DNA of 32,818 nucleotides from Christensenellaceae bacterium (GCA_045606165.1 JAZURK010000068.1:1-32818), one strand, 5' to 3'. Shown: positions 1 through 26,654, numbered from the stretch's first letter. Notes: generated by a model not told the origin, from the sequence alone. Numbers and translations are program-made.

Positions 1-613
1 ATCATTATACGCCGTCAAATATTCGTGAATTTGACTATTAAAGTTACCTTCTTTAAAATCGCGCGATAAATCAACGTGGATTTCTATATGGACGCCTAAT
101 TTTGTAAAAACAGAATACGTGTCGTCGCCTTCTCGTTTGAATTCATATCCAAGTTTATCAACAAACAACACTTTTAATTGCGGTATAAATTTAGCATCGA
201 TTAAAAGGTCGATATCACTGCTAGTGCGTAGCCAAGGCGCAGGATATAAATTTCTTATTGCGCTACCTTTTAAAATGGTAAAAGGTATTTGGTTTTCTTC
301 AAACTCCTCTGTGATAACGTCAAATTCAAAACGCATTTGTTCGTATCTAAAAAGCGCAAGATTACGCTCTTTTAAAAACTTATTTTTATAATTGCCGTCA
401 ACGTGTAGAAGTCCGCTTTTATCAAGCGCATCGCCAATTAAGTGCGCTAAATCGTGTTTTTTGGCAAGCGAATATAAGTGCGAAATAGTATTGTCGTTAA
501 TAGAGTTTTTTACGGCATCATCAATCGCCGTTTTGCTAATTTCAAAACGGATAAGTGAAAAAAACGCGTTTTCTATCACTTTTTTATCGATTATTTCAAC
601 CGCTTGTTCCATA
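1..613 (-). CDS. Uncharacterised nucleotidyltransferase-family protein (NTP_transf_5-like), 3' end cut by window edge
   Basis: Absent from the ORF track because it runs off the left edge. Manual minus-strand translation from the ATG at 613..611 (SD AAGGAG upstream) gives MEQAVEIIDKKVIENAFFSLIRFE...QIPFTILKGSAIRNLYPAPWLRTSSDIDLLIDAKF...GVHIEIHVDLS, open to position 1. The LKG-x-YP-x-R-x-DIDLL and hIEIH blocks are typical of this family. The plus-strand ORFs 119..391 and 392..673 are antisense shadows. Confidence 0.6.
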
Positions 614-645: not shown

Positions 646-1665
646 TTATCTATTTTTATACATTTTTTCGTAATAGTTTTGATATTCGCCGTTAATAATG
701 TCTTCCCACCATTTACGGTTTTCAAGATACCATTTAATAGTTTTTTTGATACCGTCTTTAAATTTGGTTTCAGGTAACCAGCCAAGTTCCGTATGAATTT
801 TAGTTGGGTCGATAGCATAACGCATATCGTGACCTTTTCTATCGGTAACGTAAGTAATTAAACTTTCAGGCTTACCAAGTTCCTTACAAATAAGTTTTAC
901 TATATCAATGTTTTTCATTTCGTTGTGACCGCCGATATTGTAAACTTCGCCAACTCTACCTTTATGAATAATTAAATCAATGGCTTTACAATGGTCTTCA
1001 ACGTATAACCAATCTCTAACGTTAATACCTTCGCCGTAAACGGGTAAAGATTTATCGTTTAACGCGTTTGCTATCATTAACGGAATAAGTTTTTCAGGGA
1101 AATGGTAAGGTCCGTAGTTATTAGAACAACGGCTAATCGTTACGGGTAAACCATAAGTTCTATTGTATGCTAAAACTAATAAGTCCGCACCCGCTTTACT
1201 AGAACTATAAGGCGAACTTGTATGTATAGGCGTTTGTTCTGTAAAGAATAAATCAGGCCTATCAAGCGGTAAATCGCCGTAAACTTCGTCGGTTGATACT
1301 TGGTGATAACGCTTAATGCCGTATTTACGACAAGCGTCCATAAGTACCGACGTTCCTAAAATATTAGTTTGCAAGAACACGTCGGGATTTTCAATCGACC
1401 TATCAACGTGCGATTCCGCAGCAAAATTAACTATAATATCAGGTTTTTCTTCTTCAAATAAGTTATAAACCGCGGCTCTATCGCAAATATCCGCTTTAAC
1501 AAAACGAAAATTAGGTTTATCTATTACCGATTCTAAAGTGGATAAATTACCAGCGTAGGTAAGTTTATCTAAACATATTATTCTATAATCAGGGTGTTTA
1601 TCCATCATATAAAAAATAAAGTTACTACCGATAAAGCCTGCGCCACCTGTTACAATAATGGTCAT
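646..1665 (-). CDS. rfbB: dTDP-glucose 4,6-dehydratase
   Basis: 339 aa. Has the N-terminal Rossmann motif TGGAGFIGSNF, the catalytic YSSSK motif, and full-length resemblance to RfbB/RmlB (STDEVYG, RCSNNYGPYHFPEKLIP). ATG with SD AGGAG. Confidence 0.95.
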   Translation of the reverse strand: MTIIVTGGAGFIGSNFIFYMMDKHPDYRIICLDKLTYAGNLSTLESVIDKPNFRFVKADICDRAAVYNLFEEEKPDIIVNFAAESHVDRSIENPDVFLQTNILGTSVLMDACRKYGIKRYHQVSTDEVYGDLPLDRPDLFFTEQTPIHTSSPYSSSKAGADLLVLAYNRTYGLPVTISRCSNNYGPYHFPEKLIPLMIANALNDKSLPVYGEGINVRDWLYVEDHCKAIDLIIHKGRVGEVYNIGGHNEMKNIDIVKLICKELGKPESLITYVTDRKGHDMRYAIDPTKIHTELGWLPETKFKDGIKKTIKWYLENRKWWEDIINGEYQNYYEKMYKNR

Positions 1666-1669
1666 AGAA

Positions 1670-2539
1670 TTACTCTCCTTTTGCTAAAGACATTAAATAT
1701 TGCCCGTATTCCGTTTGTTTAAGATTTTCGCCAAGTTTATAAAGTTGTTCTTTAGTGATAAAGCCACGCCTCCAGGCAATTTCCTCAATGCACGAAACGT
1801 AATAACCTTGCATTTCTTGAACGGTTTTAACAAAACCGCTTGCTTTATACATTCCAAGTGGCGAACCCGTATCAAGCCAAACCATACCGCGACCTAAAAG
1901 TTCTACGCTTAATTCGCCCATTTCAAGATAAGCGTTATTAACGGCAGTAATTTCAATCTCTCCACGTTTAGACGGCTTAACGTTTTTAGCAATCTCTACC
2001 ACCCTATTGTCATAAAAATAAAGTCCTGGTACAGCATAGTTAGATTTTGGATTTTGCGGTTTTTCTTCAATAGAAATAACCTTGCGCTCTTTATCAAATT
2101 CTACAACGCCAAATTCCCTTGAATCCTTTACGGGATAACCGAATATAGTAGCGCCTTTTTCTTTTGAAATCGCGCGCTTTAATACTTTAGTTAAATCTTG
2201 ACCGTGGAATACGTTATCGCCAAGAATAAGACAAACGCTATCGTTGCCAATAAATTCTTCACCTAAAATGAAAGCGTCGGCAAGCCCGCGCGGTGCCGTT
2301 TGCACACAATAAGAAAGGTTAATGCCTATATTTTTTCCGTCGCCTAAAAGTTCTTTATACGACTCAATAGCCTCGGGTGTAGAAATTATTAAAATATCTT
2401 TAATTTCTGCTAATAATAAAACTGAAAGCGGATAATATATAAGGGGTTTATCGTATATAGGTAAAAGTTGTTTAGATACCGCTTTAGTCATAGGATATAA
2501 TCTAGTACCTTTTCCACCTGCTAAAATTATACCTTTCAT
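1670..2539 (-). CDS. rfbA: Glucose-1-phosphate thymidylyltransferase
   Basis: 289 aa. [18 protein letters not shown]... with the RmlA-type core (LGDNVF, EKP, YFYD). SD AAGGAG. Lies 4 nt upstream of rfbB. Confidence 0.95.
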
Positions 2540-2551
2540 TGATTTTCTCCT

Positions 2552-3643
2552 TTATTTTTTAATAATTATACTGCAAATTTTATCTACTTCTTCGATAGAT
2601 AAGCCTGCATATAAAGGCAAACACAATACCTTTTGAGAATAATTTTTAGCGATTGGAGTGTTTACCGTTAAATCTTTATTAAACTCTTTGTTTTCCGAAA
2701 CTAATGGATAAAAATATTTACGCGCGAAAATACCTTCGTTTGATAATCTAGATACAAGTTGTTCACGACTTTCACCGTACTTATCGCTGTCGATTAAAAT
2801 AGGATAGTACGCGTAATTTTGTTTAACTTTACTATCAAATTTTAATATCGTAATACCGTTTACGTCTTTTAAGTTTTGAGTATATCTATCAAAGGCTGTT
2901 TTACGAAGTAAAAGTTCGCCGTCGATGTGCCTTAAATTGCAAAGCCCCATTGATGCTTGAAATTCGTTCATTTTAGCATTAGTGCCAAAGCACGAAAGTT
3001 CTTCGCCGTTTACACCGAAGTTCCTTTCAAGACAAATTTCTTTAATAAGGCTTTTGTCTTTAAAAGTCAAACATCCACCTTCAATGGTGTGAAAAACCTT
3101 CGTAGCGTGGAAAGAAAACATATTTACGTCACCGTAATTACCTATTGCTATACCGTCATAATACACACCAAAAGCGTGTGCCGAATCGTAAATAACTTTT
3201 AACCCATGCTTGTCCGCTATTTTTTGAATAGCGTTTACGTTACAAACGTTACCATACACGTGAACGGCTAAAATGGCGGAAGTTTTGTCAGTAATTAAAC
3301 TTTCAATCTTACTTTCGTCAATCGTATAATCGGGCTTTACGTCGCAATATACGGGCGTACAGCCTGCTTGTACGATAGCGTTAGTAGTAGATGCGAAAGT
3401 AAACGGAGTAGTTATAATTTCACCTTTAAGTTTAAGGGCTTTTAACGCTACGTAAAGGGCAAGGTGTCCGTTTACGAATAACTCAATATTATCTACTTCT
3501 AGGTAATTTTTAAGTTTTTCTTTTAACTCGTTGTGTTTAGGACCCATATTCGTTAAATGAACTGTATCCCAAATGCTTTTTATTTCTTCACAATACTCTT
3601 CATACGAAGGCATTGAAGATTTAGTAACGTTAATTGTTTTCAT
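2552..3643 (-). CDS. DegT/DnrJ/EryC1/StrS-family PLP sugar aminotransferase, probably acting on dTDP-4-keto-6-deoxyglucose
   Basis: 363 aa. PLP-lysine context FSFHATKVFHTIEGG and the family-typical N-terminus. Sits directly upstream of rfbA-rfbB with no rfbC/rfbD or ketoisomerase nearby. The product stereochemistry (viosamine versus Fuc4N type) cannot be read from sequence. Confidence 0.85.
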   Translation of the reverse strand: MKTINVTKSSMPSYEEYCEEIKSIWDTVHLTNMGPKHNELKEKLKNYLEVDNIELFVNGHLALYVALKALKLKGEIITTPFTFASTTNAIVQAGCTPVYCDVKPDYTIDESKIESLITDKTSAILAVHVYGNVCNVNAIQKIADKHGLKVIYDSAHAFGVYYDGIAIGNYGDVNMFSFHATKVFHTIEGGCLTFKDKSLIKEICLERNFGVNGEELSCFGTNAKMNEFQASMGLCNLRHIDGELLLRKTAFDRYTQNLKDVNGITILKFDSKVKQNYAYYPILIDSDKYGESREQLVSRLSNEGIFARKYFYPLVSENKEFNKDLTVNTPIAKNYSQKVLCLPLYAGLSIEEVDKICSIIIKK

Positions 3644-3941
3644 TACTCGCCCCTTCTTGAGTGGTTTGTTTTACTTCTACTTTTTTCTTTTTTGCGCCAA
3701 CGCTAAAATTGTGTTTGTTTATATACATCGTTATGAGACCTATTATAACGGCTACTGAAGCGCAAACTATAACGTAAGGATAATAGTCGTTATAAATAAA
3801 GTTACAAATTAATTCAGCGGTATTACCACCTATTATTATAGCAATAACAAACGGAATTAAAGGAAGTATGCCTGCAAAAAGCGATACGGCAATAAGCGCG
3901 CCGTAAATTTTATTTAATACGTTAACGATTTTTTCTCTCAT
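3630..3941 (-). CDS. Small 2-TM membrane protein with a lysine-rich C-terminal tail (possible minimal DctQ-like partner of the adjacent permease)
   Basis: The track ORF 3630..4028 is trimmed to the internal ATG at 3941, which has a perfect SD (TAAGGAGGggtagtATG) and avoids a 76-nt overlap with the upstream gene. Two hydrophobic spans (IYGALIAVSLFAGILPLIPFVIAIIIGG and YVIVCASVAVIIGLITMYI). Overlaps the aminotransferase start by 14 nt, suggesting translational coupling. Confidence 0.5.
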   Translation of the reverse strand: MREKIVNVLNKIYGALIAVSLFAGILPLIPFVIAIIIGGNTAELICNFIYNDYYPYVIVCASVAVIIGLITMYINKHNFSVGAKKKKVEVKQTTQEGASNENN

Positions 3942-3952
3942 ACTACCCCTCC

Positions 3953-5314
3953 TTAACCTATCAACCCAAACACTGGCAATAAGCAAAGCATCATTACTAC
4001 CGATAATAGATAATGAATAAGTACCCAAATTATACAGTTTTTAAGTGTTGGCTTTAAATCTGCTTCTGCAATACCCATAGCAATATATACGCAGGTACAG
4101 TAAGGCGGAGTTACACCGTGCATAGCACCGCAAATACAAGGAAGCATAGCAGCCGCCATCATAGGATTACCACCTGCTGCAGCCATCATACTAATTATCA
4201 TACCGCCAAAAATTTTTACTTGTGTAGAACCTGGTATTAACATACCTAATATAGCGGTAAACAGTGGTAAAATAAACGCTAATAATACAATCGGCAAATT
4301 AAATTTAGCAAGGAATTCACCAATGGCAGTGTCTAAATTAATGTCCGCAAATACGTTACTGATAAAGTATGCTACTAATACAAGTGCCGAAGTAGGAACA
4401 ACGCCTTTCATACCTTTGCAAATTTGCGAATATATGTATTTAGGTTTCATTCTTTGTTTAGTTTCTTTATCGGATAAAAAGATACCGCAAATAACTATAA
4501 GCGCTGGAATAAACAATAATATACTATTAGAAAAAGATTTGTATCCCCCACCTAATCTTTCAATAAAGAAACCTTCAAACACGCTTGTAAGTAAAAACGG
4601 AAGGAATACTATTATAGGAAGGAAAATTGCTTTCCAACCTTTTTTCACGGTTGCTTTAAATGAAGGAATATCTTCTTTTTTCATTGCTTCAACTTTATAA
4701 TAACGGCACATAATATACATCGTTATTATCCGTTGAACTAAAAACCAAAGCGCTATACCCCAAAGCAACATCCAAAATTGAGACAACGTGTATGTGTTAG
4801 GGTAAAGTTTATCAAGCGCAGCAAAAGCAACGGCAATCATACCCGCAGGCGGAATCATATTCCCCATCGTACTTGCTTGTGCTTCAATATTTGCTGCTAA
4901 ATGCGGTGGAAACCCCGTCTTTTTCATAGCGGGAATTGTAAATACGCCCGTAGTTGCAACGTTTCCAGGACCGCTACCCGATAAAGAACCCATATATGTA
5001 CTTCCGATTATAGCAACGTAGCCTGCGCCACCTCTCAACCTACCGAATATAGATAAAATTATATTAATACAATCATCTATAACCGATGTTTTCGTCAATA
5101 AATTAGCAGAAATAACGAATACTATAATAACGTATAAACTTGGTTCTTTAAGAGCGTCAAATATGTAAGTCCCTATACTTCCCCAAGTACCAGTAATGGC
5201 TATAAGTACAATAAACGATATTAGCATACCCTCGTGCAAAGGTCGTTTAAATACGATGAAAAATATTATAGCCGTTAAAAACACCGCACCTAAATATAAA
5301 AACTCTATAGGCAT
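3953..5314 (-). CDS. TRAP-transporter large-permease (DctM) family membrane protein, with no cognate binding protein in the window
   Basis: 453 aa polytopic protein. The block GSLSGSGPGNVATTGVFTIPAMKKTGFPPHLAANIEAQASTMGNMIPPA aligns by eye with the DctM signature (SGSS-A-x-G-x-ILPAM-x-GF/Y ... G-x-LIPPS). The C-terminal MHGVTPPYCTCVYIAMGI matches the DctM M-HPPVGLNLYVASGI region. Confidence 0.75.
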   Translation of the reverse strand: MPIEFLYLGAVFLTAIIFFIVFKRPLHEGMLISFIVLIAITGTWGSIGTYIFDALKEPSLYVIIVFVISANLLTKTSVIDDCINIILSIFGRLRGGAGYVAIIGSTYMGSLSGSGPGNVATTGVFTIPAMKKTGFPPHLAANIEAQASTMGNMIPPAGMIAVAFAALDKLYPNTYTLSQFWMLLWGIALWFLVQRIITMYIMCRYYKVEAMKKEDIPSFKATVKKGWKAIFLPIIVFLPFLLTSVFEGFFIERLGGGYKSFSNSILLFIPALIVICGIFLSDKETKQRMKPKYIYSQICKGMKGVVPTSALVLVAYFISNVFADINLDTAIGEFLAKFNLPIVLLAFILPLFTAILGMLIPGSTQVKIFGGMIISMMAAAGGNPMMAAAMLPCICGAMHGVTPPYCTCVYIAMGIAEADLKPTLKNCIIWVLIHYLLSVVMMLCLLPVFGLIG

Positions 5315-6708
5315 TTGTATCTATAATCTCCTTTACAAATTTTATCGCGACTGGTAAAAATATTCGTATCAAATTTTGAAATTACCATATCCTCACCGTT
5401 TTCGTCATAAATCTTTAAAGTTTCATAAATATAATCTGAAACTTCTTTCATTTCTTTATTATCATCACAAACTAAATCAATTTCGCAAAAACGTTGATTT
5501 ACGTTATGCGTTGCTAAAATTTCATCTCCCACTTTAAATCTTTCAAAAACCGCAACGACTTCTTTTCTTTGCCTTATTTTGTCAAGCCCTTCGATTTTAG
5601 AAATCTTACCTTGTTTTAACGTAGGCAACACTTGCCCTACAACTTTACCTTGTATAAATACGTCGTTTTCGTTAAAGAAAGTAGTTTGGTTTGAAACTTC
5701 GCCAGTTAAAGCAAATTCAATCAACGGATATAAAGGATTCTTTCCCGTGGCTATCGTAAACATCCTTTCGTATTCGCCACCTGGCAATCTTAAACCAGGG
5801 TCGTAAAAACGCACGGTATCCCCGTCGACAAACCCTTGCATAAATACGGGAGCATTTACTAGACCTATATCTTGATAAAGTTTTTCTACGCGTTTATGTA
5901 CGTTATCCATATATAATTTCGTAAAAACTGAAGGGGAATGAGAGCCTACTGCAAGTTTATCTAGCCCGTCTTCATATTTACCTAAAATTCTATCTACAGT
6001 TCTTATCGGAAAAGCCTTACCGTGTAGCATAAGTATAGTCATAGAAAAATCGTTGGCTTGTCCCATATATTTTTCAATAACTACTTGACCGTTAGAACTT
6101 TCCTTTTTAGCAAACTCTATACCGTTTAAAGCGTCTTTATAGTTATTGCATATGGATTGTCCACGCGAACCTCGGCTTTCACCTGGTTTTATTAAAATAG
6201 GAAACTCTACTTTTTCGTTACAAGTTTTTTCGCTACTAAAATCTGTTTCGTAATATTCAGGAATAACGTCTACGCCGTTTTTTCGACAGTATTCTTTAAA
6301 TAAGTTTTTATTCGTTAAAATTTCAAATTGCTCTTTATTCCCAAAGCAAGGAAAACCTAAACGTTCGCATATCTCTTGATACGGTTTTTGGCAAGCGTCT
6401 AATGAAGTAGAAATTACCCCGTCGATATTTTCTTTTTTACACATATCTACGATTTCATCGTAATCGGTAATATTGTAAAAATAATATTTATCAGCAATTT
6501 GCTTTGCAGGCGCGCTTTCTAACGGCAAGTAATCGGTAACGTAGGTTATAACGCCCAATTCTTTAGCCGCTTCAACCAACTTACAATGTTGAAACGCTCC
6601 GCCTATTATTAATAATTTTTTTCCTTTTAATTTTTCTATTTTTTGCATTTTTAATTTTTTTATAAAAGCCTTTGCGGAAATTCCCGCTAACATAAGGACT
6701 TTTTTCAC
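5305..6708 (-). CDS. ATP-grasp domain carboxylate-amine ligase (L-amino-acid-ligase / PurK-like class)
   Basis: KKLLIIGGAFQHCKLVEAAKELG pre-ATP-grasp Rossmann-like N-terminus. ATP-grasp core FPILIKPGESRGSRGQSIC ... VVIEKYM ... PVFMQGFV ... FYDPGLRLPGGEY. The start is ambiguous: GTG 6708 (weak SD), ATG 6693 (AAGGTG about 11 nt upstream) or ATG 6648 (no SD). Confidence 0.7.
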   Translation of the reverse strand: MKKVLMLAGISAKAFIKKLKMQKIEKLKGKKLLIIGGAFQHCKLVEAAKELGVITYVTDYLPLESAPAKQIADKYYFYNITDYDEIVDMCKKENIDGVISTSLDACQKPYQEICERLGFPCFGNKEQFEILTNKNLFKEYCRKNGVDVIPEYYETDFSSEKTCNEKVEFPILIKPGESRGSRGQSICNNYKDALNGIEFAKKESSNGQVVIEKYMGQANDFSMTILMLHGKAFPIRTVDRILGKYEDGLDKLAVGSHSPSVFTKLYMDNVHKRVEKLYQDIGLVNAPVFMQGFVDGDTVRFYDPGLRLPGGEYERMFTIATGKNPLYPLIEFALTGEVSNQTTFFNENDVFIQGKVVGQVLPTLKQGKISKIEGLDKIRQRKEVVAVFERFKVGDEILATHNVNQRFCEIDLVCDDNKEMKEVSDYIYETLKIYDENGEDMVISKFDTNIFTSRDKICKGDYRYKCL

Positions 6709-6758
6709 CTTTACAACAATTTTATTTTACAATGATTAAAATTTAACAACCTATAATT

Positions 6759-7763
6759 TTATACTTTTGTAACAACTAATTCTTTAAATATCTTTTTGCC
6801 AGACTGTTGTTTCAACTGATTTTTATCAACCTTTTTACCTAAAACCCAATCAACAATCGCTTTAGGTAAATCACATCCACCTATATGGCTAAAAGGATAT
6901 CCCCCACCAAAGCGGGCATTCATTTCAAGAACGTACGGTTTTTTATCCACCATAAAAACGTCAACGTCCATATTGCCGACGTGTTTAGTTATTTTACCTA
7001 ATCGTTCAAGAGTCTTTTCTATTTCAGTATCACAAACTAATTCAGCAATATCCGTTTCCCCTGCTCTCATCGCAATTTTTTTACGAATGTTTACAGTTTG
7101 AAATTCTCCGTTTAGGTCGTTTATTACATCCGCACCGTATTCCTGCCCGTCTAATAATTCCTGAAAAATTATTTTATCTTCAACAGAATCCGATTCGTAT
7201 TTTAAATAAGATTTATTTATCGTTCTTACGTTTCTACTATAATAATATAGTAATGCAAGTTCATCTTCTGCAATAGATAGAGCAATAGATCCACACCCAA
7301 ATCGCGGTTTTATAACAATAGGATACTTTAACTCTCCCGACTCTAAAGCAAGCATAGTTTTTTGTAACGTCAAATAAGTTTTAGGAACGTTAAATCCATT
7401 TTCTTTTAAAAATAAATAGGTTTTCCATTTATCATTACAAATTTCTATTAATTCAGGGGTAGAAACGATAACTTTAGTTCCTATCTTTTCAAATTTATCC
7501 TTATTTTTAGATAAAATTGGTAAATCTATATCAAATAAAGAAACGACGATATCTATTGAATTTTCTTTGCAATAATTTAATAAAAACGGAACGTACTCTT
7601 CATTATATATCAATGGCGAAATTACTGCCTTATCCGCATAATGAAAAGCAACAGTTTTGTCATCGGAATTACAAACGTGTACGTGCCCATCTTTACCAAG
7701 TACGTCTTTAAAATATTTCACCATATAAGCACGTCTACCAACAGACGTTAATAAAACGTTCAT
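6759..7763 (-). CDS. ATP-grasp domain ligase (carbamoyl-phosphate-synthase-L-like, ATP-grasp_3/4 type common in glycan-modification loci)
   Basis: 334 aa. MNVLLTSVGRRAYMVKYF N-terminus, YPIVIKPRFGCGS, IFQELLDGQEYGADV, and the Mg/ATP loop LEMNARFGGGYP. SD GGAG. The start overlaps the wzx-GNAT stop (TAATG). Confidence 0.75.
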   Translation of the reverse strand: MNVLLTSVGRRAYMVKYFKDVLGKDGHVHVCNSDDKTVAFHYADKAVISPLIYNEEYVPFLLNYCKENSIDIVVSLFDIDLPILSKNKDKFEKIGTKVIVSTPELIEICNDKWKTYLFLKENGFNVPKTYLTLQKTMLALESGELKYPIVIKPRFGCGSIALSIAEDELALLYYYSRNVRTINKSYLKYESDSVEDKIIFQELLDGQEYGADVINDLNGEFQTVNIRKKIAMRAGETDIAELVCDTEIEKTLERLGKITKHVGNMDVDVFMVDKKPYVLEMNARFGGGYPFSHIGGCDLPKAIVDWVLGKKVDKNQLKQQSGKKIFKELVVTKV

Positions 7764-9646
7764 TACTCTTTCTCCTCAAAATGCAATACTAAATGCAAAT
7801 CGTTAGGACGCGGTTCATTTTCCAACACGTACTCTTTAAACCCATACTTATAGTAAACACTCAATGCTTTTTCGTTTGTTTTAGTAGTATATAAATGAAT
7901 ACCGTTAACGCCTGATTTTTTGCTTGCTTCAATAAACTCTTTAAGTAATGCACTTGCTAAACCTTGGCCCCTGCATTCACTTTTAGTTGCTAAAATAGAT
8001 ACGTAAGCTAAATTATTTTCGGTATTTTTTGCGTACCCTGCAATCATAGCAACTATTTTTCCGTCTTTTATTTTAGGAATAACTAATCCTTTTGATTCTA
8101 ACTTTTTAGAATATTCTTTTAAGTCAACTTTAGTCGATAATGGTATTGGGAAATCTTTATCAACTGATTTTAAAAATCCCTCTATAGTGTTAGCCGTTAT
8201 TTTAATGGTATTTTTCTTGAATAAACCTTTTAATACTTTAATCATATATTCAAAACTTTCAAACTTAAATAATTTTGCGCCTGCAACGTAAATTACAACG
8301 CCAAGCGGTACTTGGATTAAAAGGGTTAAAATATCAGGTAAACCTATAAACGTTACAAAAAATACTATTGCGCCCATTACCGCCGAAAGTAGCATAGACG
8401 GGAACATATCTTTTATTTGTTCAAAATAATTATAGTTTAAAAGTTTCCTATTAGGTAAAGCGTTAATAAAACTTGATGCTATAGTTGATAATAATAAACT
8501 ATACGCCATAGCCATTACGCCAAACCACATTGACGCTAAAAGTAAAACTATCCCAACCGTCTTTTTAGCAATTTCAAGTTTTAAAAAGATATCACTTCTT
8601 CCCATTGCTTTAATCGCGTTAAGGTTAGCCGTATGTATAGGATAAAACGCGTAAGTAAAACAGAAAATTCTTAAGTATGGAACGCAAAATAACCATTTTT
8701 CAGTAAGAAGTAACCTAATTAACGGCTCGGCGCAAACGCCTAAACCAACCATGCACGGCCATAAGATAAAAGAACTTATTTTTATAGCCCTGCGCGTCAT
8801 AGATTTTAAAACTTCTTTATTTGACTGTTCTTTAGAAAGAGTAGGCAATAAAACGCTATCTATTGATAAATTTATATTCGTAATTAAAAGTTTAGGAAAT
8901 TGGTCGCCTTTATTATAGAAGGCCAAATCTTCAGTTGAATATTTTTTACCAATAATAAGTTGGCGTATATCTTTATATATCGTATCAATCAATTTAGAAA
9001 CTAATAATTTCCAACCGAAAGAAAATAAGCCTTTTAATCTTTCAAAAGAGAAAAGAAGTTTAGGTCTCCACTTAACAGTTACCCAAAGTATAAGCGTTCC
9101 TACGAAAAGATTAAATAAGTTTTGAACTACTAACGCCCAAACGCCATAACCTTTTACTGCCATAATTATTCCTACTACGGCGGAAGATATAGTAGCGCCT
9201 ATCGTAGAATAAAAGAACTTTTTAAACAACATATTCTTTGAAATGTAGGCTTGTTGAACGTTTTTAAGTGCAGAAATTATAAGCGTTATACCTAATACTC
9301 TAATAATAGGAGTTAAAGTAGGTTCTTCATAAAATAACGCAATTAACGGAGCAGTAAAAAACAACAGTAAATAAAGCACGGTACACATTGCGATATTAAA
9401 ATAAAATACCGTTGAAAAGTCAATTTCGTCCGCATCTTTTTTTTGTATTAACGAAGTGCCAAGTCCACTATCTATAAATACTTGCAAAATTGTAATAATT
9501 ACGGTAACTAATGCGATAGTACCATAAACAGTAGGGTCTAAAAGACGCGCCAAAACAATTGATACTACGAAAGTAACAAGTTGAGCACCCGAGCGTTCTA
9601 AAAAACGCCATATGAAGTTGGATAAAAAGGATTTTTGATTGACCAT
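7763..9646 (-). CDS. wzx: Wzx-type (MOP/PST family) polysaccharide flippase fused to a C-terminal GNAT N-acetyltransferase domain
   Basis: 627 aa. Residues 1 to about 480 are a polytopic Polysacc_synt-type protein (FLERSGAQLVTFVVSIVLARLL..., many TM spans). Residues from about 485 (approximately 7766..8200) carry GNAT motif A, ECRGQGLASALLKEFIEASKKSG...LYT...NEKALSVYYKYGFKE. It is a single uninterrupted ORF. Confidence 0.8.
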   Translation of the reverse strand: MVNQKSFLSNFIWRFLERSGAQLVTFVVSIVLARLLDPTVYGTIALVTVIITILQVFIDSGLGTSLIQKKDADEIDFSTVFYFNIAMCTVLYLLLFFTAPLIALFYEEPTLTPIIRVLGITLIISALKNVQQAYISKNMLFKKFFYSTIGATISSAVVGIIMAVKGYGVWALVVQNLFNLFVGTLILWVTVKWRPKLLFSFERLKGLFSFGWKLLVSKLIDTIYKDIRQLIIGKKYSTEDLAFYNKGDQFPKLLITNINLSIDSVLLPTLSKEQSNKEVLKSMTRRAIKISSFILWPCMVGLGVCAEPLIRLLLTEKWLFCVPYLRIFCFTYAFYPIHTANLNAIKAMGRSDIFLKLEIAKKTVGIVLLLASMWFGVMAMAYSLLLSTIASSFINALPNRKLLNYNYFEQIKDMFPSMLLSAVMGAIVFFVTFIGLPDILTLLIQVPLGVVIYVAGAKLFKFESFEYMIKVLKGLFKKNTIKITANTIEGFLKSVDKDFPIPLSTKVDLKEYSKKLESKGLVIPKIKDGKIVAMIAGYAKNTENNLAYVSILATKSECRGQGLASALLKEFIEASKKSGVNGIHLYTTKTNEKALSVYYKYGFKEYVLENEPRPNDLHLVLHFEEKE

Positions 9647-9655
9647 TATTTGCCT

Positions 9656-10600
9656 TTATTTATTTCTTGTTTTTTCTAAAAATGGGAAATACGCTTTTAA
9701 TCTAATTTTAATTCGATATTTTAGCGGATATTTTTTAAGGAATTTTTTATACTCTTTAGCAAGCATTTTTTTATATTCGTTTAAACGCTGTACTTTTTCA
9801 AATTCAAAAAGTAAAATTCTTTCATTAATCGTAGAATTATAGGCGTAATTAGTGTCAACGTTCAAAATTTTAAGCATATTGCACAATTTATCCGTATGTT
9901 TAACAAATCTATCGTTATCCTTAGACATTCTACTAGTCCAAGAACCTTTGGCAAGCACTCTATACGAAGACATATTGTCTTTTAAAAACAACATACCCCC
10001 GCGTAAAGAACCTAAAATTTGCAAGGTGTAATCTAATTTTAAAAATTGTCTAAAAGGTGGAGGATTTTCCATTAATTCTCTTCTATACATCAAAGAATTA
10101 GTAGCAACGAATCCCCCGCTACCCATAATAACTTGTTCTATAGGAAATATCGTATCTTCTTTTGACGGTTGAATTATCCCCGTTTCTTCTTTAGTTAACG
10201 CGTTTATACGGCTTGCAGTATGCGCGCACATATCAATTTCTGGGTGCGATTCTAACGCATCGTATTGTTTTTGAAGTTTATAAGGGTCAGTCCAAAAATC
10301 ATCGCCTTCACAAACTGCAATATATATGCCTTTTGCCCTAGGAAATTGATAGGTATCCCCTATAGCAATTTTTTGAGAGTACTGATTAACAGTTTGATAG
10401 ATAGGCTTTATAATGTCGGGGTATTTTTCTTCATATTCCCTTATAATATTTGCCGTATTATCGGTAGACGCGTCGTCGTGAACCAACACTTCAAACTTGA
10501 AATTCGTTTTTTGCATTAAAAAACTATCAAGCGCATCTTTAATATAATCTTCGTGATTAAAAGCGTTACAAATAACACTTACAGCAATATTTTCATCCAT
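9656..10600 (-). CDS. Family 2 glycosyltransferase
   Basis: 314 aa. VSVICNAFNHEDYIKDALDSFLMQ...EVLVHDDASTDNT and the acidic motif CEGDDFW. Confidence 0.85.
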   Translation of the reverse strand: MDENIAVSVICNAFNHEDYIKDALDSFLMQKTNFKFEVLVHDDASTDNTANIIREYEEKYPDIIKPIYQTVNQYSQKIAIGDTYQFPRAKGIYIAVCEGDDFWTDPYKLQKQYDALESHPEIDMCAHTASRINALTKEETGIIQPSKEDTIFPIEQVIMGSGGFVATNSLMYRRELMENPPPFRQFLKLDYTLQILGSLRGGMLFLKDNMSSYRVLAKGSWTSRMSKDNDRFVKHTDKLCNMLKILNVDTNYAYNSTINERILLFEFEKVQRLNEYKKMLAKEYKKFLKKYPLKYRIKIRLKAYFPFLEKTRNK

Positions 10601-14155: not shown

Positions 14156-14692
14156 TTAAATATCAAACCCGATACGCGTTTCACTTAACACTTCGTACAT
14201 TTTAGCTTTTTCTTGTTCAGTTTTTTTAGCGTAATGAGTATTCCAAACGTTATTTTCGTTCATCATTGCTTTATTTTTTTCTAAATACTTTGAAGCCGAA
14301 CCGATAACCCTTGCAGGATTGCCAACGACTACCGAGTCTTCAGGAATATCTTTTGCAATTACCGCACCAGCGCCGATTATCGAATTTTTACCGATAGTTA
14401 CGCCAGGTAAAATTATTACCCCTGCACCAACGAATACGTTATCTTCAATGGTAACGCGACCAACACGGCTATAACCAAGCGCTTGTTTCGTACTGCCGTC
14501 GTGCGCTAAAATTTTAGCGTTTGATAATACTACGTTATTTCCAAGGGTAATTAAAAAACCGTGATTTACATCAATATCCCTTGTCCAAATAGTGCAGTTT
14601 TCGCCACATTTAACACCGTATTTTCTTAACTCATTAACGGTGTAAGGGCCTTTTAAAATTAACCCTTTAATTTTATTTAATAACTTTTTCAT
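14156..14692 (-). CDS. Left-handed beta-helix (hexapeptide-repeat) acetyltransferase, maltose/galactoside O-acetyltransferase-like
   Basis: 178 aa. Tandem hexapeptide repeats: IEDNVFVGAGVIILPGVTIGKNSIIGAGAVIAKDIPEDSVVVGNPARVIG. Confidence 0.85.
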   Translation of the reverse strand: MKKLLNKIKGLILKGPYTVNELRKYGVKCGENCTIWTRDIDVNHGFLITLGNNVVLSNAKILAHDGSTKQALGYSRVGRVTIEDNVFVGAGVIILPGVTIGKNSIIGAGAVIAKDIPEDSVVVGNPARVIGSASKYLEKNKAMMNENNVWNTHYAKKTEQEKAKMYEVLSETRIGFDI

Positions 14693-16743: not shown

Positions 16744-18210
16744 TTATTTTCCCCTTTTAAACCTTTTCTTCTCTATATAATATTTCGCATACGAAGATAG
16801 TAAGTATGCAATCCAAGTAGATTTTGAAATTTTATAAACTACACTTTCGTCTTTTTCAAAAGGAATTTCTAATAAATCTTTGCATACTTTACTTATAATA
16901 TTAACGTGAATTTTAGATAATTTCCTTTTTTTACGATTAACTGCCGTCCATATATAAATAATACTTCGGCTATTAAAGATATTAAGATAAACTTGTCCTA
17001 GCGTGTTGTAAATTAAATTCTCTTGTCCTGCCCATCTTCCGAGTCTATTTTCAATAGAAAACAAATCAAAGGTATTAACTTTTTCGCCCGAAGATTTTAT
17101 TTCGTTTAGCCAAAGTTTTAATTGAATTTTTGCACCTTTGCTATAATTATGTAATTTGCAACGGAAGTACGCTGGCGTCGCAAAAATAGTAGGAATATCA
17201 CGATGAAGCGAACATTTGCCCACTTGACCTATAATATCACCATTAATAACCGCACCGTCTCCAAAACTTTCCTTAATAGTATTGGCTATTCGCAAAGTTC
17301 GTAAAGAATATTTATCTTCGCCTAAAAGATTATCAAAGTTTTCTTTTAAATCTTTAGAAACGTCTATATCTTCAATAAGTCGATGTTCTAAATTGATTTT
17401 TTCACATAATTCAACAGGGATAACCACGTCTTGCGTTTTATCGCTATGTTCGGGGTGCTTTATCGTATAACAAGTAAAATTAGCGTTAGAATTTTTTAAA
17501 AATGCTAAAACAACCCTACTATCCCTACCCGAAGTGATAGGACAATACACCTTAAATTTGTCAATATACAATTTAAGTATATTTTCAATCATCGGTGCAA
17601 CTATTTCCGTTGCTTTGTCAAGGGTAATTTGTTTTTGCTTTATTCTTGAATTTATAAAGCGTACCGAAGATTTAGCGTTTATATCTAAATAGTGGTTTGG
17701 AATAAGTTGCTTTATTTTTCTATATTCAGTTATATCGTAAGGCATTGCTTGGGATATATCCCCATTGTTTCTAATTTTAATATACTCACTATCTACGTTA
17801 TAATTATTTTCTTTAACGATATAGTTTGGGTTGCTAGAACAAGTAAAATCGCCTTCTATATCGTAATAGATAGGAATACTACAAGTAGCGTCGCCTAAAA
17901 TATAATAGTTTTCTTCTTTTCTATATAAAACAAGGTACTTCCCGCCTAAAGACTTTTCATAATCTATAACGGCATTAATGTTTTCGCAATTTTCTATAAT
18001 TTCCTTGGCGAGATTTTCAACGCTACCTGATATAACGTTTACTGCGTAACCGAAAATAGCGCACTCGCTTTCGCCGTTAAAACAATGCGAAAAAGGTGTT
18101 CTTTCATCTATTGATATTTTGTATTTACCAAACTGTTTTCTTTCCGATAATTCGGGAACAGCCATTTCTTTTTCAGATAAGAAATAAGAAAAAACACTTT
18201 TAACGTTCAT
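16744..18210 (-). CDS. Asparagine-synthetase-like (AsnB fold) ATP-dependent amidoligase lacking the N-terminal catalytic cysteine
   Basis: 488 aa. By-eye alignment to AsnB gives three matches. LGGKYLVLYRKEENYYILGDATCSIPIYY corresponds to LQGMFAFALYD...YLIGRDHLGIIPLY. IKQLIPNHYLD corresponds to IKEFPAGSYL. The PP-loop-like VYCPITSGRDSRVVLAFL corresponds to VLLSGGLDSS. The N-terminus is MNVKS, with no Cys2 nucleophile. Confidence 0.55.
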   Translation of the reverse strand: MNVKSVFSYFLSEKEMAVPELSERKQFGKYKISIDERTPFSHCFNGESECAIFGYAVNVISGSVENLAKEIIENCENINAVIDYEKSLGGKYLVLYRKEENYYILGDATCSIPIYYDIEGDFTCSSNPNYIVKENNYNVDSEYIKIRNNGDISQAMPYDITEYRKIKQLIPNHYLDINAKSSVRFINSRIKQKQITLDKATEIVAPMIENILKLYIDKFKVYCPITSGRDSRVVLAFLKNSNANFTCYTIKHPEHSDKTQDVVIPVELCEKINLEHRLIEDIDVSKDLKENFDNLLGEDKYSLRTLRIANTIKESFGDGAVINGDIIGQVGKCSLHRDIPTIFATPAYFRCKLHNYSKGAKIQLKLWLNEIKSSGEKVNTFDLFSIENRLGRWAGQENLIYNTLGQVYLNIFNSRSIIYIWTAVNRKKRKLSKIHVNIISKVCKDLLEIPFEKDESVVYKISKSTWIAYLLSSYAKYYIEKKRFKRGK

Positions 18211-19361: not shown

Positions 19362-20336
19362 TTACAAATTTTCTTTATACCACTCGATTGCTTCTTCAAG
19401 ACCTTTTTCAAAATTATAGTCAGGCTCGTAGCCTAAAAGTTCTTTAGCTTTTGAAATATCAGCGTTACTGTGTTTTATATCGCCTTTTCTATCAGGACCA
19501 AAGATTGGCTCTATATCAACGTTAAGCGCTTTGGTAAGCGAATAATAAATATCTATAAGATATTCCCTACCGCCGTAAGCGATATTGAACGCTTGTCCCG
19601 CCGCAGAACTTGGCGCTAAACAAGCCTTTAAGTTTGCCTCAATAACGTTTTCGATATAAGTAAAGTCTCTTGACTGTTTACCGTCGCCGTTAATAGTAGG
19701 ACTTTCGCCGTCTAAAAGTTGTTTGATAAACTTTGGAATAACCGCAGCGTACGCGCCGTACGGGTCTTGCCTTCTACCAAACACGTTAAAATATCTCATA
19801 CCATAGGTATCTAAACCATAGTGCATAGTGTATTGTTTAGCCCATTCTTCATCGCACATCTTGGTAACGGCGTAAGGAGATAAAATATTGCCTTCTCTAC
19901 CTTCTTTTTTAGGAAGGTTAGGCTCGTCACCGTATACCGAAGACGAAGACGCGTAAACGAATTTTTTAACGCCTTTTTGTCTTGCTGCTTCTAACATATT
20001 TAAAGTTCCTTGAATATTGTTAGCGCAGTAAAAAAGTGGCATTTCAATCGAGCGCGGAACACTCCCCCAAGCGGCTTGGTTTAAAACGTAATCAACACCC
20101 TCACAAGCCTTTAAACAAGTATCTAAATCTTTAATGTCCCCTTTCATAAACTCATAGTTAGGGTTATCTAAAAACATATCCACGTTTGCTTGTTTACCTG
20201 TAGAAAGGTCGTCTAAACAACGAACTTTATAACCAAGATTAAGTATCGCCTCGCAAAGGTTTGAACCTATAAAACCTGCGCCACCCGTTACTAAAAACAA
20301 CGTATTCTTTTCAAACTTTAAATGTTTATATCCCAT
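19362..20336 (-). CDS. WbpP/TviC-like SDR, UDP-N-acetylhexosamine (or UDP-HexNAc-uronate) C4-epimerase
   Basis: 324 aa. VTGGAGFIGSN, QAAWGSVPRS, SPYAVTK, RYFNVFGRRQDPYGAYAAVIPKF, INGDG-x-SRDFTYIENV. Near-colinear with my recollection of P. aeruginosa WbpP. Confidence 0.85.
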   Translation of the reverse strand: MGYKHLKFEKNTLFLVTGGAGFIGSNLCEAILNLGYKVRCLDDLSTGKQANVDMFLDNPNYEFMKGDIKDLDTCLKACEGVDYVLNQAAWGSVPRSIEMPLFYCANNIQGTLNMLEAARQKGVKKFVYASSSSVYGDEPNLPKKEGREGNILSPYAVTKMCDEEWAKQYTMHYGLDTYGMRYFNVFGRRQDPYGAYAAVIPKFIKQLLDGESPTINGDGKQSRDFTYIENVIEANLKACLAPSSAAGQAFNIAYGGREYLIDIYYSLTKALNVDIEPIFGPDRKGDIKHSNADISKAKELLGYEPDYNFEKGLEEAIEWYKENL

Positions 20337-20346
20337 AAAACTCTCC

Positions 20347-22731
20347 CTAAAATACTACTTTTGAACCGTGTGATGCAGAGCAAACGTACGCGCTACGCTC
20401 ATAGCCGTATTTATCGTAATAATCTTTATTAACCGCGTTTAAAACGATATCCGCTTTATCTTTTTCAATAAGAGCGATAACGCAACCGCCAAGTCCCGCA
20501 CCGATAATTTCACTACCGATAACGCCTTCAGTTCCGTTTAATAAATCTACCAAATAGTCGATTTGTTCAGTTGAACAATTATAATTACCAGAACACTCTG
20601 CTATATCAACGTCGTTGTCGATAAGCGATTGTAAGTATTCGTCGGTAACGGCAAACTCTTTAATTCTATCGCCGTCGTGACTAATCTTCATATACCTACC
20701 GAATTCTTCGTAATTGCCGTCTTCAAGCAACTGTAAACACTTTTCAGCCCTTACACATTCGGAAATACCAAATAAAGCAACACCCCTTAAATCGTAAATA
20801 CCCGGGTCTTTATGAGTAGCAAAAATCCTTTTAACGTCTTGCTCGTATTCAGGCAAAAGAGCCTTTACGCTACCCCTAGTAACAGTTTCCGGTATAGCTT
20901 TTAAAATTTCGTAAATTTCAGTATACGGTCTAACTTTAGCAACGTCTCTAAATTCCGCAAATCTATATTTAGGGAAGTATTTATTCATTAACATTAATGC
21001 AAATTCGTAAGACGCGACTTTAGCGTTAAACTTATCCTTACTGCCTTCCGATTTTTTCGCTTTTATCATACTGTTAGCAAGAAGTACGGCGTATTTATCC
21101 GAAAAAGCAACGTCTTTAATAACTTCCATTGGTTTAAACTTGATGTGAACGATACGTCCGCTTTTACCGCATTTCATAGACGCTTGGTCCCCCGCGCCAC
21201 CGCGTGAACCAACGAACCACTCACCTTCACCACACAATTCAATAAATTGCCTATCGGTAATATTTAAAGCGTTAAGCGCAACAACCGCCTCCATTGTAGA
21301 AACAACTATGCTTGATGATGACGAAATGCCCGCCGCAACAGGCAACGTTCCACCCGCAGCCATATCCATACCGCAAATAGTATCATTAAACTCAAATTGA
21401 GCTCTTATAACCGAACTTTTAACGTAGTTACACCAATCGCCGTTGGTTTCTTTTAGTTCTTGTTTAACCCTTTCGTCGTTAAGGTAATCAAGCCAATTAT
21501 CGTATTTTATATCGCCTAAAGTTTTGCTAATCGAAAAACTTCTATCTGGATAAACGCTACTTACGTTTGTAATGTTAACAGTATCGTCATCTCTTGGAGC
21601 GCTGACAAAAACCATATCTTTATCGGTAGTTATAACGTTTATAGCGCCACCGCGGTGGTCGATGTGCCTACCCATAAGGTTAACCCTACCAGGCGCTCTT
21701 GTTATAACAACCTTTTTATCACCGTATTTTTCGATGAAAAGTTGTAAAATTTTTATATATCTATCTTTATGGAAAGATTTTTCTTCGCCGTATAAAAGGG
21801 CAAAATACTCGTCTAATTTACCGTTATTTATGTCTTCAATAAAATTGCTTGCCGTGCGCATAAAGTGTCTTGAAATGACTTTAAGTTCAGGTTTTGTTGA
21901 ATAAGTTAACATATCCGTAGGATTATTAACTTCGTATAAGCAAGCCTCGCCGTTTAAAGCGAATTTTTCAAGTGCATCGGTAAGATAAATCTCGCCTTGA
22001 GCGTTGTTAGAGCCAAGCGTTAAAATAATTTCAACGGCTCTATCTAAATCAAAACAGTAAAGTCCCGCGTTTGCGTATTTAGTAGAAAGGACTTCTTTAG
22101 CGCTAAAAGTTTTACCGCAAAGTGTAATTTCGCCTTGAGGTTTTTTAGCCTTTGCTTTTTTTATAACTTTTTCGCCTTTATTCGCGTTGATTCCCGTTTC
22201 CTTAACGGCTTTTTCATAATCTTTTTCTTCAAAAGACGCAAGGTGCATTAAAACGGCATCGGCAAACTCTACTACGCCGTAAGGTTTATTATTTTGAACG
22301 ACAACCCTACCTCCACTAAAATTGGCGTTTATAGGTTGAACGCCCCATACCGCTTTAGACGTTTTAGAGTTTTTAATAAGGTCTTTTATAACTTGGGTTG
22401 AAATTATTTTATCACCCATCGAAATTATAACGGGACCAGAGTAACCAACCGTTTTTAAGGCGTTAAGACCGCATAAAGCAGCGTGTCCCGTGCCTTTTTG
22501 TTCTTTTTGGTAAGCGTAAACAACGCCGTCTTCTCCGTCTAGGCAATTCATTACGCTATACGCTTGGTGACCTATAACGATAACGAAACGGCTTACTCCC
22601 GCCTCTTTCATATTTGAAATTATTCTTTTAATCGTAGGAATTCCCGCGCAATCAAAACATACTTTGTTTTGAGAGTCGTCGTTCATTCTTGTTCCTTTAC
22701 CCGCGCAAAGAATAACTGCTGCAGCGTTCAT
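20347..22731 (-). CDS. Bifunctional GlmU-like sugar-1-phosphate nucleotidyltransferase (N-terminal) / GHMP-family sugar 1-kinase (C-terminal)
   Basis: 794 aa. The N-terminal AAVILCAGKGTRM, QKEQKGTGHA and NAQGEIYLTD motifs are GlmU-type pyrophosphorylase motifs. The C-terminal PGRVNLMGRHIDHRGG (galactokinase signature-like), PVAAGISSSSS (GHMP motif II) and GAGLGGCVIAL (motif III) mark the kinase. SD AAGGGGGA. Confidence 0.8.
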   Translation of the reverse strand: MNAAAVILCAGKGTRMNDDSQNKVCFDCAGIPTIKRIISNMKEAGVSRFVIVIGHQAYSVMNCLDGEDGVVYAYQKEQKGTGHAALCGLNALKTVGYSGPVIISMGDKIISTQVIKDLIKNSKTSKAVWGVQPINANFSGGRVVVQNNKPYGVVEFADAVLMHLASFEEKDYEKAVKETGINANKGEKVIKKAKAKKPQGEITLCGKTFSAKEVLSTKYANAGLYCFDLDRAVEIILTLGSNNAQGEIYLTDALEKFALNGEACLYEVNNPTDMLTYSTKPELKVISRHFMRTASNFIEDINNGKLDEYFALLYGEEKSFHKDRYIKILQLFIEKYGDKKVVITRAPGRVNLMGRHIDHRGGAINVITTDKDMVFVSAPRDDDTVNITNVSSVYPDRSFSISKTLGDIKYDNWLDYLNDERVKQELKETNGDWCNYVKSSVIRAQFEFNDTICGMDMAAGGTLPVAAGISSSSSIVVSTMEAVVALNALNITDRQFIELCGEGEWFVGSRGGAGDQASMKCGKSGRIVHIKFKPMEVIKDVAFSDKYAVLLANSMIKAKKSEGSKDKFNAKVASYEFALMLMNKYFPKYRFAEFRDVAKVRPYTEIYEILKAIPETVTRGSVKALLPEYEQDVKRIFATHKDPGIYDLRGVALFGISECVRAEKCLQLLEDGNYEEFGRYMKISHDGDRIKEFAVTDEYLQSLIDNDVDIAECSGNYNCSTEQIDYLVDLLNGTEGVIGSEIIGAGLGGCVIALIEKDKADIVLNAVNKDYYDKYGYERSAYVCSASHGSKVVF

Positions 22732-24721: not shown

Positions 24722-25426
24722 TTAATCTTCCTTATAATCTTTTCCTAGTACGGCAAAAACCGTCATAAACATAACTTTTATTTCGCCAAAAAAACTAAAT
24801 TTTTCTATGGCACGTAAGTTGTATTTCATTTTTGCAGGTAAAATCTCTTTAACGTAGGTTTTATCAGTATCTTCCGCGCCGCTTAAAAGTTCAGCCTCGT
24901 CTTTATAGTAAATACTTGCTAAACTCGTAACGCCTGCGGGGAGCAATAAAGTTGCCATCATTTCAGGGGTATACTCGTCAACGTATTTTATTGCCTCCGG
25001 CCTAGTTCCAACGAAAGACATAGTACCGCGTAAAACGTCAATTAATTGACTTACTTCATCAAGTCTACATTTTCTAATGAACTTTCCAACTTTAGTAATT
25101 CTACTATCGCCATCAACGGTAACGTGTGTGCCAATTTTGTCAGCGTTGTTTACCATTGTACGGAATTTAAAAATTCTAAATTTTTTACCATATTGGGTAA
25201 CCCTTACCTGCCTATAAAATACAGGGCCAGGACTATCAATTTTAATAGCAATAGCCAAGATTAAAAAAATCGGAGATAAAATTATAAGCATAATAAGCGA
25301 AACGAAAAAATCGAACAGTCTTTTAAAAAACAAACTAAATTTTTTCTTTTTTAAAATATCGTAATATTTTTTTACTTCTTCAGTTTTCATTTCTTCTGGA
25401 AGTTTATCCCACTTTATAATTCTCAC
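24722..25426 (-). CDS. Small (PglC/EpsL/WcfS-type) initiating phosphoglycosyl transferase, bacterial sugar transferase family
   Basis: 234 aa. KRLFDFFVSLIMLIILSPIFLILAIAIKIDSPGPVFYRQVRVTQYGKKFRIFKFRTM ... DEVSQLIDVLRGTMSFVGTRPE. GTG start with a strong SD (AAGGAG, 8 nt) and GTGA overlap with the upstream stop. Confidence 0.9.
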   Translation of the reverse strand: MRIIKWDKLPEEMKTEEVKKYYDILKKKKFSLFFKRLFDFFVSLIMLIILSPIFLILAIAIKIDSPGPVFYRQVRVTQYGKKFRIFKFRTMVNNADKIGTHVTVDGDSRITKVGKFIRKCRLDEVSQLIDVLRGTMSFVGTRPEAIKYVDEYTPEMMATLLLPAGVTSLASIYYKDEAELLSGAEDTDKTYVKEILPAKMKYNLRAIEKFSFFGEIKVMFMTVFAVLGKDYKED

Positions 25427-26640: not shown

Positions 26641-26654
26641 TTCAATTCTTCCTT

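Follow-up and report, generated by a model that had tools for sequence, protein, structure and literature searches.

To our knowledge, few of the enzymes that attach unusual N-acyl groups, amino-acyl groups among them, to 4-amino-4,6-dideoxyhexoses have been assigned. The cassette considered here, eight co-directional genes at 646-9646 on the minus strand of a 32,818-nucleotide (nt) stretch of DNA from a Christensenellaceae bacterium (GCA_045606165.1, JAZURK010000068.1:1-32818; the whole stretch is called the window below), brings together elements of known kinds, namely 4-amino sugars with N-acyl groups, glycan amidoligases of the ATP-grasp type, and transporters that scavenge compounds for glycan decoration; what is new is the gene combination and the transporter architecture. 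In the route to viosamine (Qui4N) and its N-acetylated form (Qui4NAc), described for E. coli O7 and Shigella dysenteriae 7, RmlA and RmlB are followed by VioA/DesI and by N-acetylation through VioB (PMC7685785). The same first three steps are predicted here, by RfbA, RfbB, and a DesI/VioA-like C4 aminotransferase of the DegT family, but the cassette is without a VioB-type LbH N-acetyltransferase, and an ATP-grasp ligase and a permease stand in its place. For the second kind, the TupA-like C-terminal domain of Campylobacter jejuni Cj1438 has been established experimentally to carry out ATP-grasp amidation of a sugar carboxylate, glucuronate, so that, as is predicted here, an ATP-grasp enzyme from a polysaccharide locus forms an amide on a sugar (PMC11800379). 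There, however, a carboxylate of the sugar is joined to serinol or ethanolamine phosphate as the amine, whereas here the sugar most likely contributes the amine; moreover, the ligases of the window are not TupA-like but resemble L-amino-acid ligases and PurD. The third kind is exemplified by LicB, the choline permease of lic operons, where a scavenged compound is built into a surface glycan. It is exemplified as well by the TRAP transporter SiaPQM, which supplies scavenged sialic acid for the decoration of lipooligosaccharide in Haemophilus influenzae (PMC5812351). Like SiaPQM, the permease of the cassette would be a secondary transporter scavenging an external compound for a surface glycan, but SiaPQM is tripartite, with the binding protein SiaP and a four-helix Q domain, and is encoded outside the glycan operon, whereas the permease here has a new two-helix partner and the genes for the two lie between those of a ligase and the aminotransferase.

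We propose that this module decorates the precursor of a Wzx/Wzy-dependent surface polysaccharide by joining an imported acid to a 4-amino sugar, a proposal whose chances we regard as evenly balanced. RfbA and RfbB would supply dTDP (deoxythymidine diphosphate)-4-keto-6-deoxyglucose, the step with equivalog-level support, and the DesI-like DegT enzyme would transaminate C4 to give dTDP-4-amino-4,6-dideoxy-D-glucose. A DctM-family elevator-type carrier with its two-helix subunit would import an anionic small molecule without a binding protein, most likely a carboxylate such as an amino acid, a di- or tricarboxylic acid, or a hydroxy acid. One ATP-grasp enzyme, here called ligase B, would turn the acid into an acyl-phosphate to be attacked by the 4-amine of the sugar, yielding an N-acyl-viosamine nucleotide by the logic of PurD or of an L-amino-acid ligase. 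Where they are present, a second ATP-grasp enzyme (ligase A) would add a second residue and a GNAT would acetylate the free amino group, and Wzx would then flip the finished repeat unit. Equivalog-level assignments extend no further than the first two enzymatic steps; the remainder we infer from gene context and predicted fold.

The proposal draws first on a neighborhood survey. With the permease family as query and one genome per species, relatives were found in 163 species, all of them uncultured gut or rumen Clostridia; the closest 80 of the 163 loci were taken with 10-kb flanks, and in the 77 that were usable the open reading frames (ORFs) were called, clustered, and labelled. The small two-helix protein is encoded directly 3′ of the permease gene in every one of these 77 species-level loci. 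Fifty-eight of the 80 permease genes immediately adjoin an ATP-grasp gene (an interposed LysR gene being ignored), and an ATP-grasp gene lies at most 2 genes upstream or 3 downstream of the permease in 57 of the 77 loci, or anywhere in the locus in 60. Polysaccharide genes are present in 67 of the 77 and a DegT gene in 43. The ligase B type, subfamily AG0, occurs in 30 loci, with the DegT type of the window alongside in 25; 3 of the 5 AG0 loci that are without this DegT type are contigs ending close to the pair. About 10 species share the full order, from Wzx through GNAT, ligase A, ligase B, the permease, and the small protein to DegT, usually continuing into RfbA and RfbB. About 10 more species have a minimal form without GNAT and ligase A, in which Wzx and ligase B are followed by the permease and the small protein and then by DegT, RfbA, and RfbB, with no acetyltransferase within the module. 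The conserved core is ligase B, the permease, the small subunit, and DegT, usually with RfbA and RfbB. That the ATP-grasp, DctM-like, and DegT/rfbAB genes would travel together elsewhere had been put forward as a test in the initial annotation of this DNA, and the 77-locus survey bears it out; since the genes are conserved together, the refutation that a lack of conservation in related loci was to bring does not arise. The same annotation had treated the two ATP-grasp ligases as a pair: both genes are indeed present, but only that for ligase B belongs to the core, ligase A and the GNAT being optional.

Adjacency of ATP-grasp and permease genes was seen in at least 6 gene arrangements and with six ligase subfamilies. 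Fifty of the 58 permease-adjacent ATP-grasp genes belong to AG0, AG2, AG5, AG9, and AG11, subfamilies that fall into a single clade together with AG8 and AG12. The remaining 8 belong to AG3, which with AG4, AG6, and AG7 forms a separate clade, as do AG1 and AG10. The permease itself is 66-95% identical across the 80 species, which span several families of Clostridia, and this conservation, set against the divergence of the adjacent ligases, suggests that one shared acid is attached to different amino-sugar acceptors. In its widest form the reading would be that, in many gut Clostridia (the 163 GTDB species with relatives), a so far unrecognized, binding-protein-independent two-subunit DctM-type carrier scavenges one gut-derived acid, from host, diet, or microbes, and that a dedicated ATP-grasp clade attaches it to capsule 4-amino sugars; we advance this tentatively, as a possibility less likely than not. 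A different pattern is seen at L017, L024, L031, L046, L057, L069, and L080, where three to six ATP-grasp genes form an array that ends in the permease-small-protein pair. Measured from the permease gene (at 10001), these arrays lie some 3-10 kb upstream. They include PF14397 “sugar-transfer associated” types and are accompanied by a GNAT of a second type, a DegT resembling PglE, and a transferase resembling PglC; they look like machinery for assembling, step by step, a peptide-like chain on a uridine diphosphate (UDP)-4-amino sugar.

Several points weigh against the proposal. Being phylogenetically related, the 80 loci closest to the query among the 163 do not give independent counts, and all genomes that carry the module are uncultured metagenome-assembled genomes (MAGs). 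The DegT protein falls below the DesI equivalog cut-off (280.6 vs 650), and an LbH acetyltransferase encoded in the window (14156-14692) could simply N-acetylate the amino sugar. In 10 of the 77 loci the permease pair, often with LysR, has no polysaccharide genes nearby, and in 4 loci MmgE/PrpD-like genes stand beside it, suggesting catabolic use. The stand-alone loci and these neighbors together indicate that the pair can serve catabolism or general uptake, and they favor an explanation that we consider credible if unlikely, namely that the ligases use ordinary intracellular amino acids and that the pair is a general LysR-regulated nutrient transporter that happens to adjoin variable polysaccharide islands, or one that boosts the supply of a common amino acid such as glutamate or aspartate. 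The glycan would then be independent of any external compound. That the nearest wider relatives of the permease are TAXI-type fused permeases also counts in its favor, and a LysR gene adjoins the permease pair in 29 loci. Hitch-hiking, however, would hardly explain the ligase adjacency of 58 of 80 permease genes across so many arrangements and six subfamilies, and in the window the pair sits inside the operon, between ligase and DegT, with genes overlapping on both of its sides.

Clues to the acid were sought in the neighbors of the permease pair. At the stand-alone loci these are unrelated (MatE, PHP, asparaginase, BlaR1-type, and others) and offer no consistent clue. The MmgE/PrpD-family genes are in tandem at L047 (7239-9984) and L068 (6963-9712) and single at L070 (8273-9760) and L067; no polysaccharide genes lie near those of L047, L068, and L070, an ATP-grasp gene and an LbH acetyltransferase gene lie just upstream at L067, and L068 has two permease paralogues. 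The products are divergent and matched no equivalog; a catabolic use of the same transported acid is possible, and the four loci give weak hints that the acid is a di- or tricarboxylate. The substrates of TAXI-type permeases include glutamate and C5 dicarboxylates, a hint, not a decisive one, toward a glutamate-like acid.

The permease matches PF06808 over its full length (profile positions 4-408 of 413), scores 128.7 against TIGR02123 (TRAP_fused), below the cut-off, and is predicted from its sequence to be a DctM-family 12-helix large membrane subunit. Its AlphaFold2 model is of moderate quality (predicted local distance difference test, pLDDT, 76). In Foldseek this model is matched best by the M domains of IseQM and SiaQM (query-normalized template modelling [TM] scores 0.57-0.63), followed by DASS and AbgT-family carriers; the ligands or substrates named in the matched entries are organic or inorganic anions. 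The hairpin motifs SGSGP..TIPAM, MIPP, and VTPP align with IseQM. Against 1.84 billion representatives at 50% identity, 45 sequences matched at E<=1e-30, about 15 of them full-length, at 31-49% identity; the sequences that follow those 45 are fused TAXI-type permeases, about 30% identical. By these comparisons the permease belongs to a compact, strongly conserved clade, apparently of new subunit composition.

The novelty lies in the partner. The small protein is about 90-103 amino acids (aa) long across the loci, with two hydrophobic helices and the conserved motif ...SFFAG.LPLIPF..AIIIGG.TGE..FLYKQYYPWVI. The copy in the window has no Pfam match, PF04290 (DctQ) was found in 0 of 24 members scanned at E<=10, and a profile search against the PDB matched no solved chain. 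DctQ and TctB were considered as identities for this protein and rejected, with no DctQ match and one weak TctB match among the 24 members. Nor is a Q domain fused to the permease, which is only 453 aa long. No DctP or TAXI binding protein is encoded in the window, and none figures among the families listed for 100 unclassified neighbors (200-480 aa) from the 77 loci, a search confined to the loci. The defining features of TRAP transporters (TC 2.A.56) include the four-helix small subunit DctQ, separate or fused (PMC5812351); by these features a system with neither DctQ nor a binding protein is not a tripartite transporter. Hence the earlier label of a TRAP-type permease holds as to the DctM family but not in the tripartite sense, the two-helix partner being new.

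The lack of a binding protein to impose directionality, together with the presence among the structure matches of AbgT-family members that their PDB entries call efflux pumps, would also suit a pair that works outward, exporting a by-product or a charged precursor or acting as an accessory flippase. We consider this highly improbable, given a dedicated Wzx, closest permease relatives by both structure and sequence that are uptake systems, and an adjacent ATP-dependent cytoplasmic ligase that needs its substrate inside the cell.

Ligase B has the better model, with a pLDDT of 88.9 and a predicted TM score of 0.87. Foldseek returned 447 PDB matches at E<=0.001 (best E 8e-28), the best 50 of which are all ATP-grasp enzymes, and the model accordingly shows a predicted three-domain ATP-grasp fold. 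At the top are 4dim (“GAR-synthetase-like,” uncharacterized) and the L-amino-acid ligases 3vot (BL00235), RizA, and BacD, followed by the GAR synthetase PurD and by biotin carboxylases. The Pfam matches are PylC-like_N (36.4 vs a cut-off of 27) and CPSase_L_D2 (29.4 vs 19.8). The L-amino-acid ligases (BacD/YwfE, RizA, BL00235) and PurD are the closest folds, with TM scores of 0.57-0.72 (query-normalized) or 0.63-0.81 (target-normalized), and they activate a small carboxylate as an acyl-phosphate for attack by an amine, which in the case of PurD is that of an amino sugar phosphate. Unlike them, ligase B is encoded among genes of glycan biosynthesis, rather than of dipeptide antibiotics or purine synthesis; its identity to them is 14-20%, and LAL_C2 (PF18603) stays below its cut-off (25.7 bits vs 29.4). 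All 120 homologues listed come from uncultured Clostridia and are either without a name or annotated as “hypothetical,” and none of these 120 comes from an organism with a known glycan.

If ATP-grasp enzymes can amidate a sugar carboxylate, as is experimentally established for Cj1438 on glucuronate (PMC11800379), the ligases of the window might do the same: the 4-amino sugar would be plainly N-acetylated, by the GNAT or the LbH enzyme, and the ATP-grasps would join an imported acid that bears an amine, either an amino acid or a taurine-like compound, to the carboxylate of a uronic acid. The window does encode a TviC-like epimerase (19362-20336), of the UDP-N-acetylglucosaminuronic acid (UDP-GlcNAcA) 4-epimerase type, besides the LbH acetyltransferase, and several loci have genes for UDP-glucose dehydrogenase on the flanks of the module. 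However, neither ligase gave a Pfam match to the TupA-like ATP-grasp family at E<=0.01, the closest folds of ligase B join small carboxylates to amines, and the minimal cassette ties ligase B to DegT, RfbA, and RfbB with no uronic-acid gene or acetyltransferase inside. The LbH enzyme, moreover, could plausibly act elsewhere, namely on the UDP-4-amino sugar of the PglF/PglE-like genes at 25423-28718. On balance we think amidation of a uronic acid quite unlikely and prefer N-acylation of the 4-amino sugar.

The sugar itself is taken to be viosamine. RfbB and RfbA exceed their equivalog cut-offs (TIGR01181 and TIGR01207). For the DegT protein the best NCBIfam model is TIGR04427 (DesI, 280.6 bits) and the best PDB sequence match is likewise DesI (2po3, E 6.5e-51). 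Family searches of the window's proteins found no RmlC, RmlD, or FdtA-type isomerase anywhere in the window, in agreement with the reported absence of rfbC, rfbD, and a 3,4-ketoisomerase. From the best family match and this absence of an isomerase or epimerase, the product would be dTDP-4-amino-4,6-dideoxy-D-glucose. In L030, L049, L055, and L066 a gene for an RmlC-type 3,5-epimerase lies between the small-protein gene and DegT; with this insertion the 4-amino sugar may be of a different (L-series) configuration in those species.

What is core and what is optional is best seen in the closest genome, L005, a Christensenellaceae MAG whose proteins are 87-96% identical to those of the window. In blastn, window positions 10582-8211 and 6655-202 align with it at 83-86% DNA identity, and in L005 about 31 bp take the place of the 1.55 kb between them (6656-8210), which hold the GNAT domain and ligase A. 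Eleven of the 30 AG0 loci have ligase A (AG1), with a GNAT sequence immediately upstream in all 11, as a called gene or a fusion in 10 and as a tblastn match only in L014. Together, the indel and this co-occurrence mark ligase A and the GNAT as an optional sub-module, and ATP-grasp/GNAT pairs recur, AG1 with this GNAT and AG8 with a second GNAT type. The Wzx-GNAT fusion to which the initial annotation drew attention is real but lineage-specific: fusion occurs in 2 of 13 species only (the window and L075), while in the 11 others the GNAT is a stand-alone gene of 144-154 aa, and the Wzx of L005, which is unfused and 482 aa long, shares 89% identity with that of the window. We considered the fusion as a defining feature of the cassette and rejected it as incidental. 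The window carries the GNAT/ligase A add-on and L005 lacks it; these two close relatives constitute a ready-made comparison.

As to function, ligase A exceeds the cut-off of NF009404 (PRK12767.1-3, “carbamoyl phosphate synthase-like” ATP-grasp; 336.9 vs 316), a model without established function, and its closest PDB sequence is a structural-genomics entry (2pn1, E 1.6e-42). The nearest PDB sequences to the GNAT are amino-acid and N-alpha acetyltransferases (phosphinothricin-acetyltransferase-like, NAA30/50, RimI), the only NCBIfam models it matches are RimI, EctA, and AAC-type, all under their cut-offs, and neither WecD nor PseH figures among its PDB sequence matches or NCBIfam models. Such affinities are weakly compatible with the capping of an amino-acyl amine. 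In sum, the family and fold searches of the non-canonical proteins that had been asked for at the outset gave calls for ligase B, the permease, and the GNAT that fit their proposed roles.

Table 1. Coordinates of the cassette features in the window, with the supporting matches
Feature	Coordinates	Strand	Evidence
rfbB, dTDP-glucose 4,6-dehydratase	646..1665	-	TIGR01181, 499.9 bits vs cut-off 365.1; also PF16363, PF01370
rfbA, glucose-1-phosphate thymidylyltransferase	1670..2539	-	TIGR01207, 454.3 bits vs cut-off 360.65
DegT-family aminotransferase, DesI/VioA-like	2552..3643	-	PF01041, E 2.9e-90
Small membrane subunit, 103 aa, two predicted helices	3630..3941	-	
DctM-family permease, 453 aa	3953..5314	-	PF06808, E 2.5e-45
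ATP-grasp ligase B (subfamily AG0), predicted core carboxylate-amine ligase	5305..6648	-	Pfam matches PylC-like_N, CPSase_L_D2, LAL_C2
ATP-grasp ligase A (subfamily AG1), optional second ligase	6759..7763	-	NF009404
GNAT acetyltransferase domain, fused to the Wzx C-terminus	7763..8221	-	PF00583, 53.9 bits
Wzx flippase domain	8222..9646	-	PF13440, E 2.4e-97
Indel of 1.55 kb (GNAT + ATP-grasp A) vs closest genome	6656..8210	-	blastn vs L005

The eight gene types named for 646-9646 were all recovered with Pfam and NCBIfam (Table 1), and the three gene overlaps first reported are all present when read directly in the sequence: TAATG at 7763 joins the Wzx-GNAT gene to that of ligase A; ATGCCTATAG at 5305-5314 is a 10-nt overlap of the ligase B and permease genes; and the small-protein gene overlaps the DegT gene by 14 nt (3630-3643). 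The latter two overlaps indicate translational coupling of ligase B to the permease and of the small protein to DegT. A scan for promoters and terminators inside the cassette gave nothing exceeding shuffled expectation. For the small protein, the ATG at 3941, which lies 6-7 nt past a strong AAGGAGG Shine-Dalgarno site, is the start; TTG 4028 was rejected. Homologue lengths and the point where DNA homology to L005 begins make ATG 6648, giving 447 aa, the most likely start of ligase B, whose gene had been called as 5305-6708. The minus strand carries every gene from about 31 kb down to position 1, and the cassette comprises the last eight complete genes of one long Wzx/Wzy-type polysaccharide locus that runs from 28718 downward. 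The count of nine complete genes in the initial annotation needs correction, since eight are listed and the ninth, an NTP_transf_5-like gene (“uncharacterised nucleotidyltransferase”) that follows rfbB at 612..1 (-), runs off the window. This family is also found downstream of rfbB in L005, L009, L010, L049, L055, L061, L063, and L075; two plus-strand ORFs antisense to the gene (119-391 and 392-673) have no family match and are probably spurious.

The upstream part of the locus encodes several GT2 and GT4 glycosyltransferases, a Wzy-like protein, and a YdjC-like deacetylase, in addition to the LbH acetyltransferase and the TviC-like epimerase. A second 4-amino-sugar pathway lies at 24722-28718 (-), made up of a PglF-like 4,6-dehydratase, an aminotransferase resembling PglE/PseC, and a phosphoglycosyl transferase resembling PglC, and is, as read from the gene families, a UDP-4-amino-sugar priming pathway for which the LbH enzyme is a candidate PglD. 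At 20347-22731 (-) an N-terminal nucleotidyltransferase is fused to a GHMP (galactokinase-like) kinase in a single protein of 794 aa, which would be a one-protein enzyme for sugar salvage and activation; there are larger relatives, 963 aa long (cluster c42), in L020, in L039, and in a third locus that is probably L055. Between the genes for the YdjC-like deacetylase and GT4 enzymes, 16744-18210 (-) encodes a soluble protein of 488 aa for which searches of Pfam, NCBIfam, and PDB sequences gave no match; its stretch ITSGRDSRV is similar to the SGGxDS motif of PP-loops, and the protein could be an asparagine-synthase-like amidotransferase.

The literature searched held no report that links ATP-grasp enzymes with viosamine/Qui4N or a TRAP-type permease with such loci, and nothing relevant on ATP-grasp, dTDP, and aminotransferase or on TRAP, ATP-grasp, and DegT in combination. 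For the question of which enzymes N-acylate 4-amino sugars, the cassette offers a defined, conserved candidate ligase plus the supply of its sugar nucleotide, so that the question is directly testable in vitro. For transport, a new DctM-family architecture is indicated, in which a two-helix protein is the partner and a binding protein is absent. If the scavenging proposed here is real, the surface chemistry of these bacteria, possibly including its charge or zwitterionic character, would depend on an environmental metabolite, and such a metabolite would shape the capsules of abundant but uncultured gut commensals, for example among the Christensenellaceae, Acutalibacteraceae, and Oscillospiraceae.

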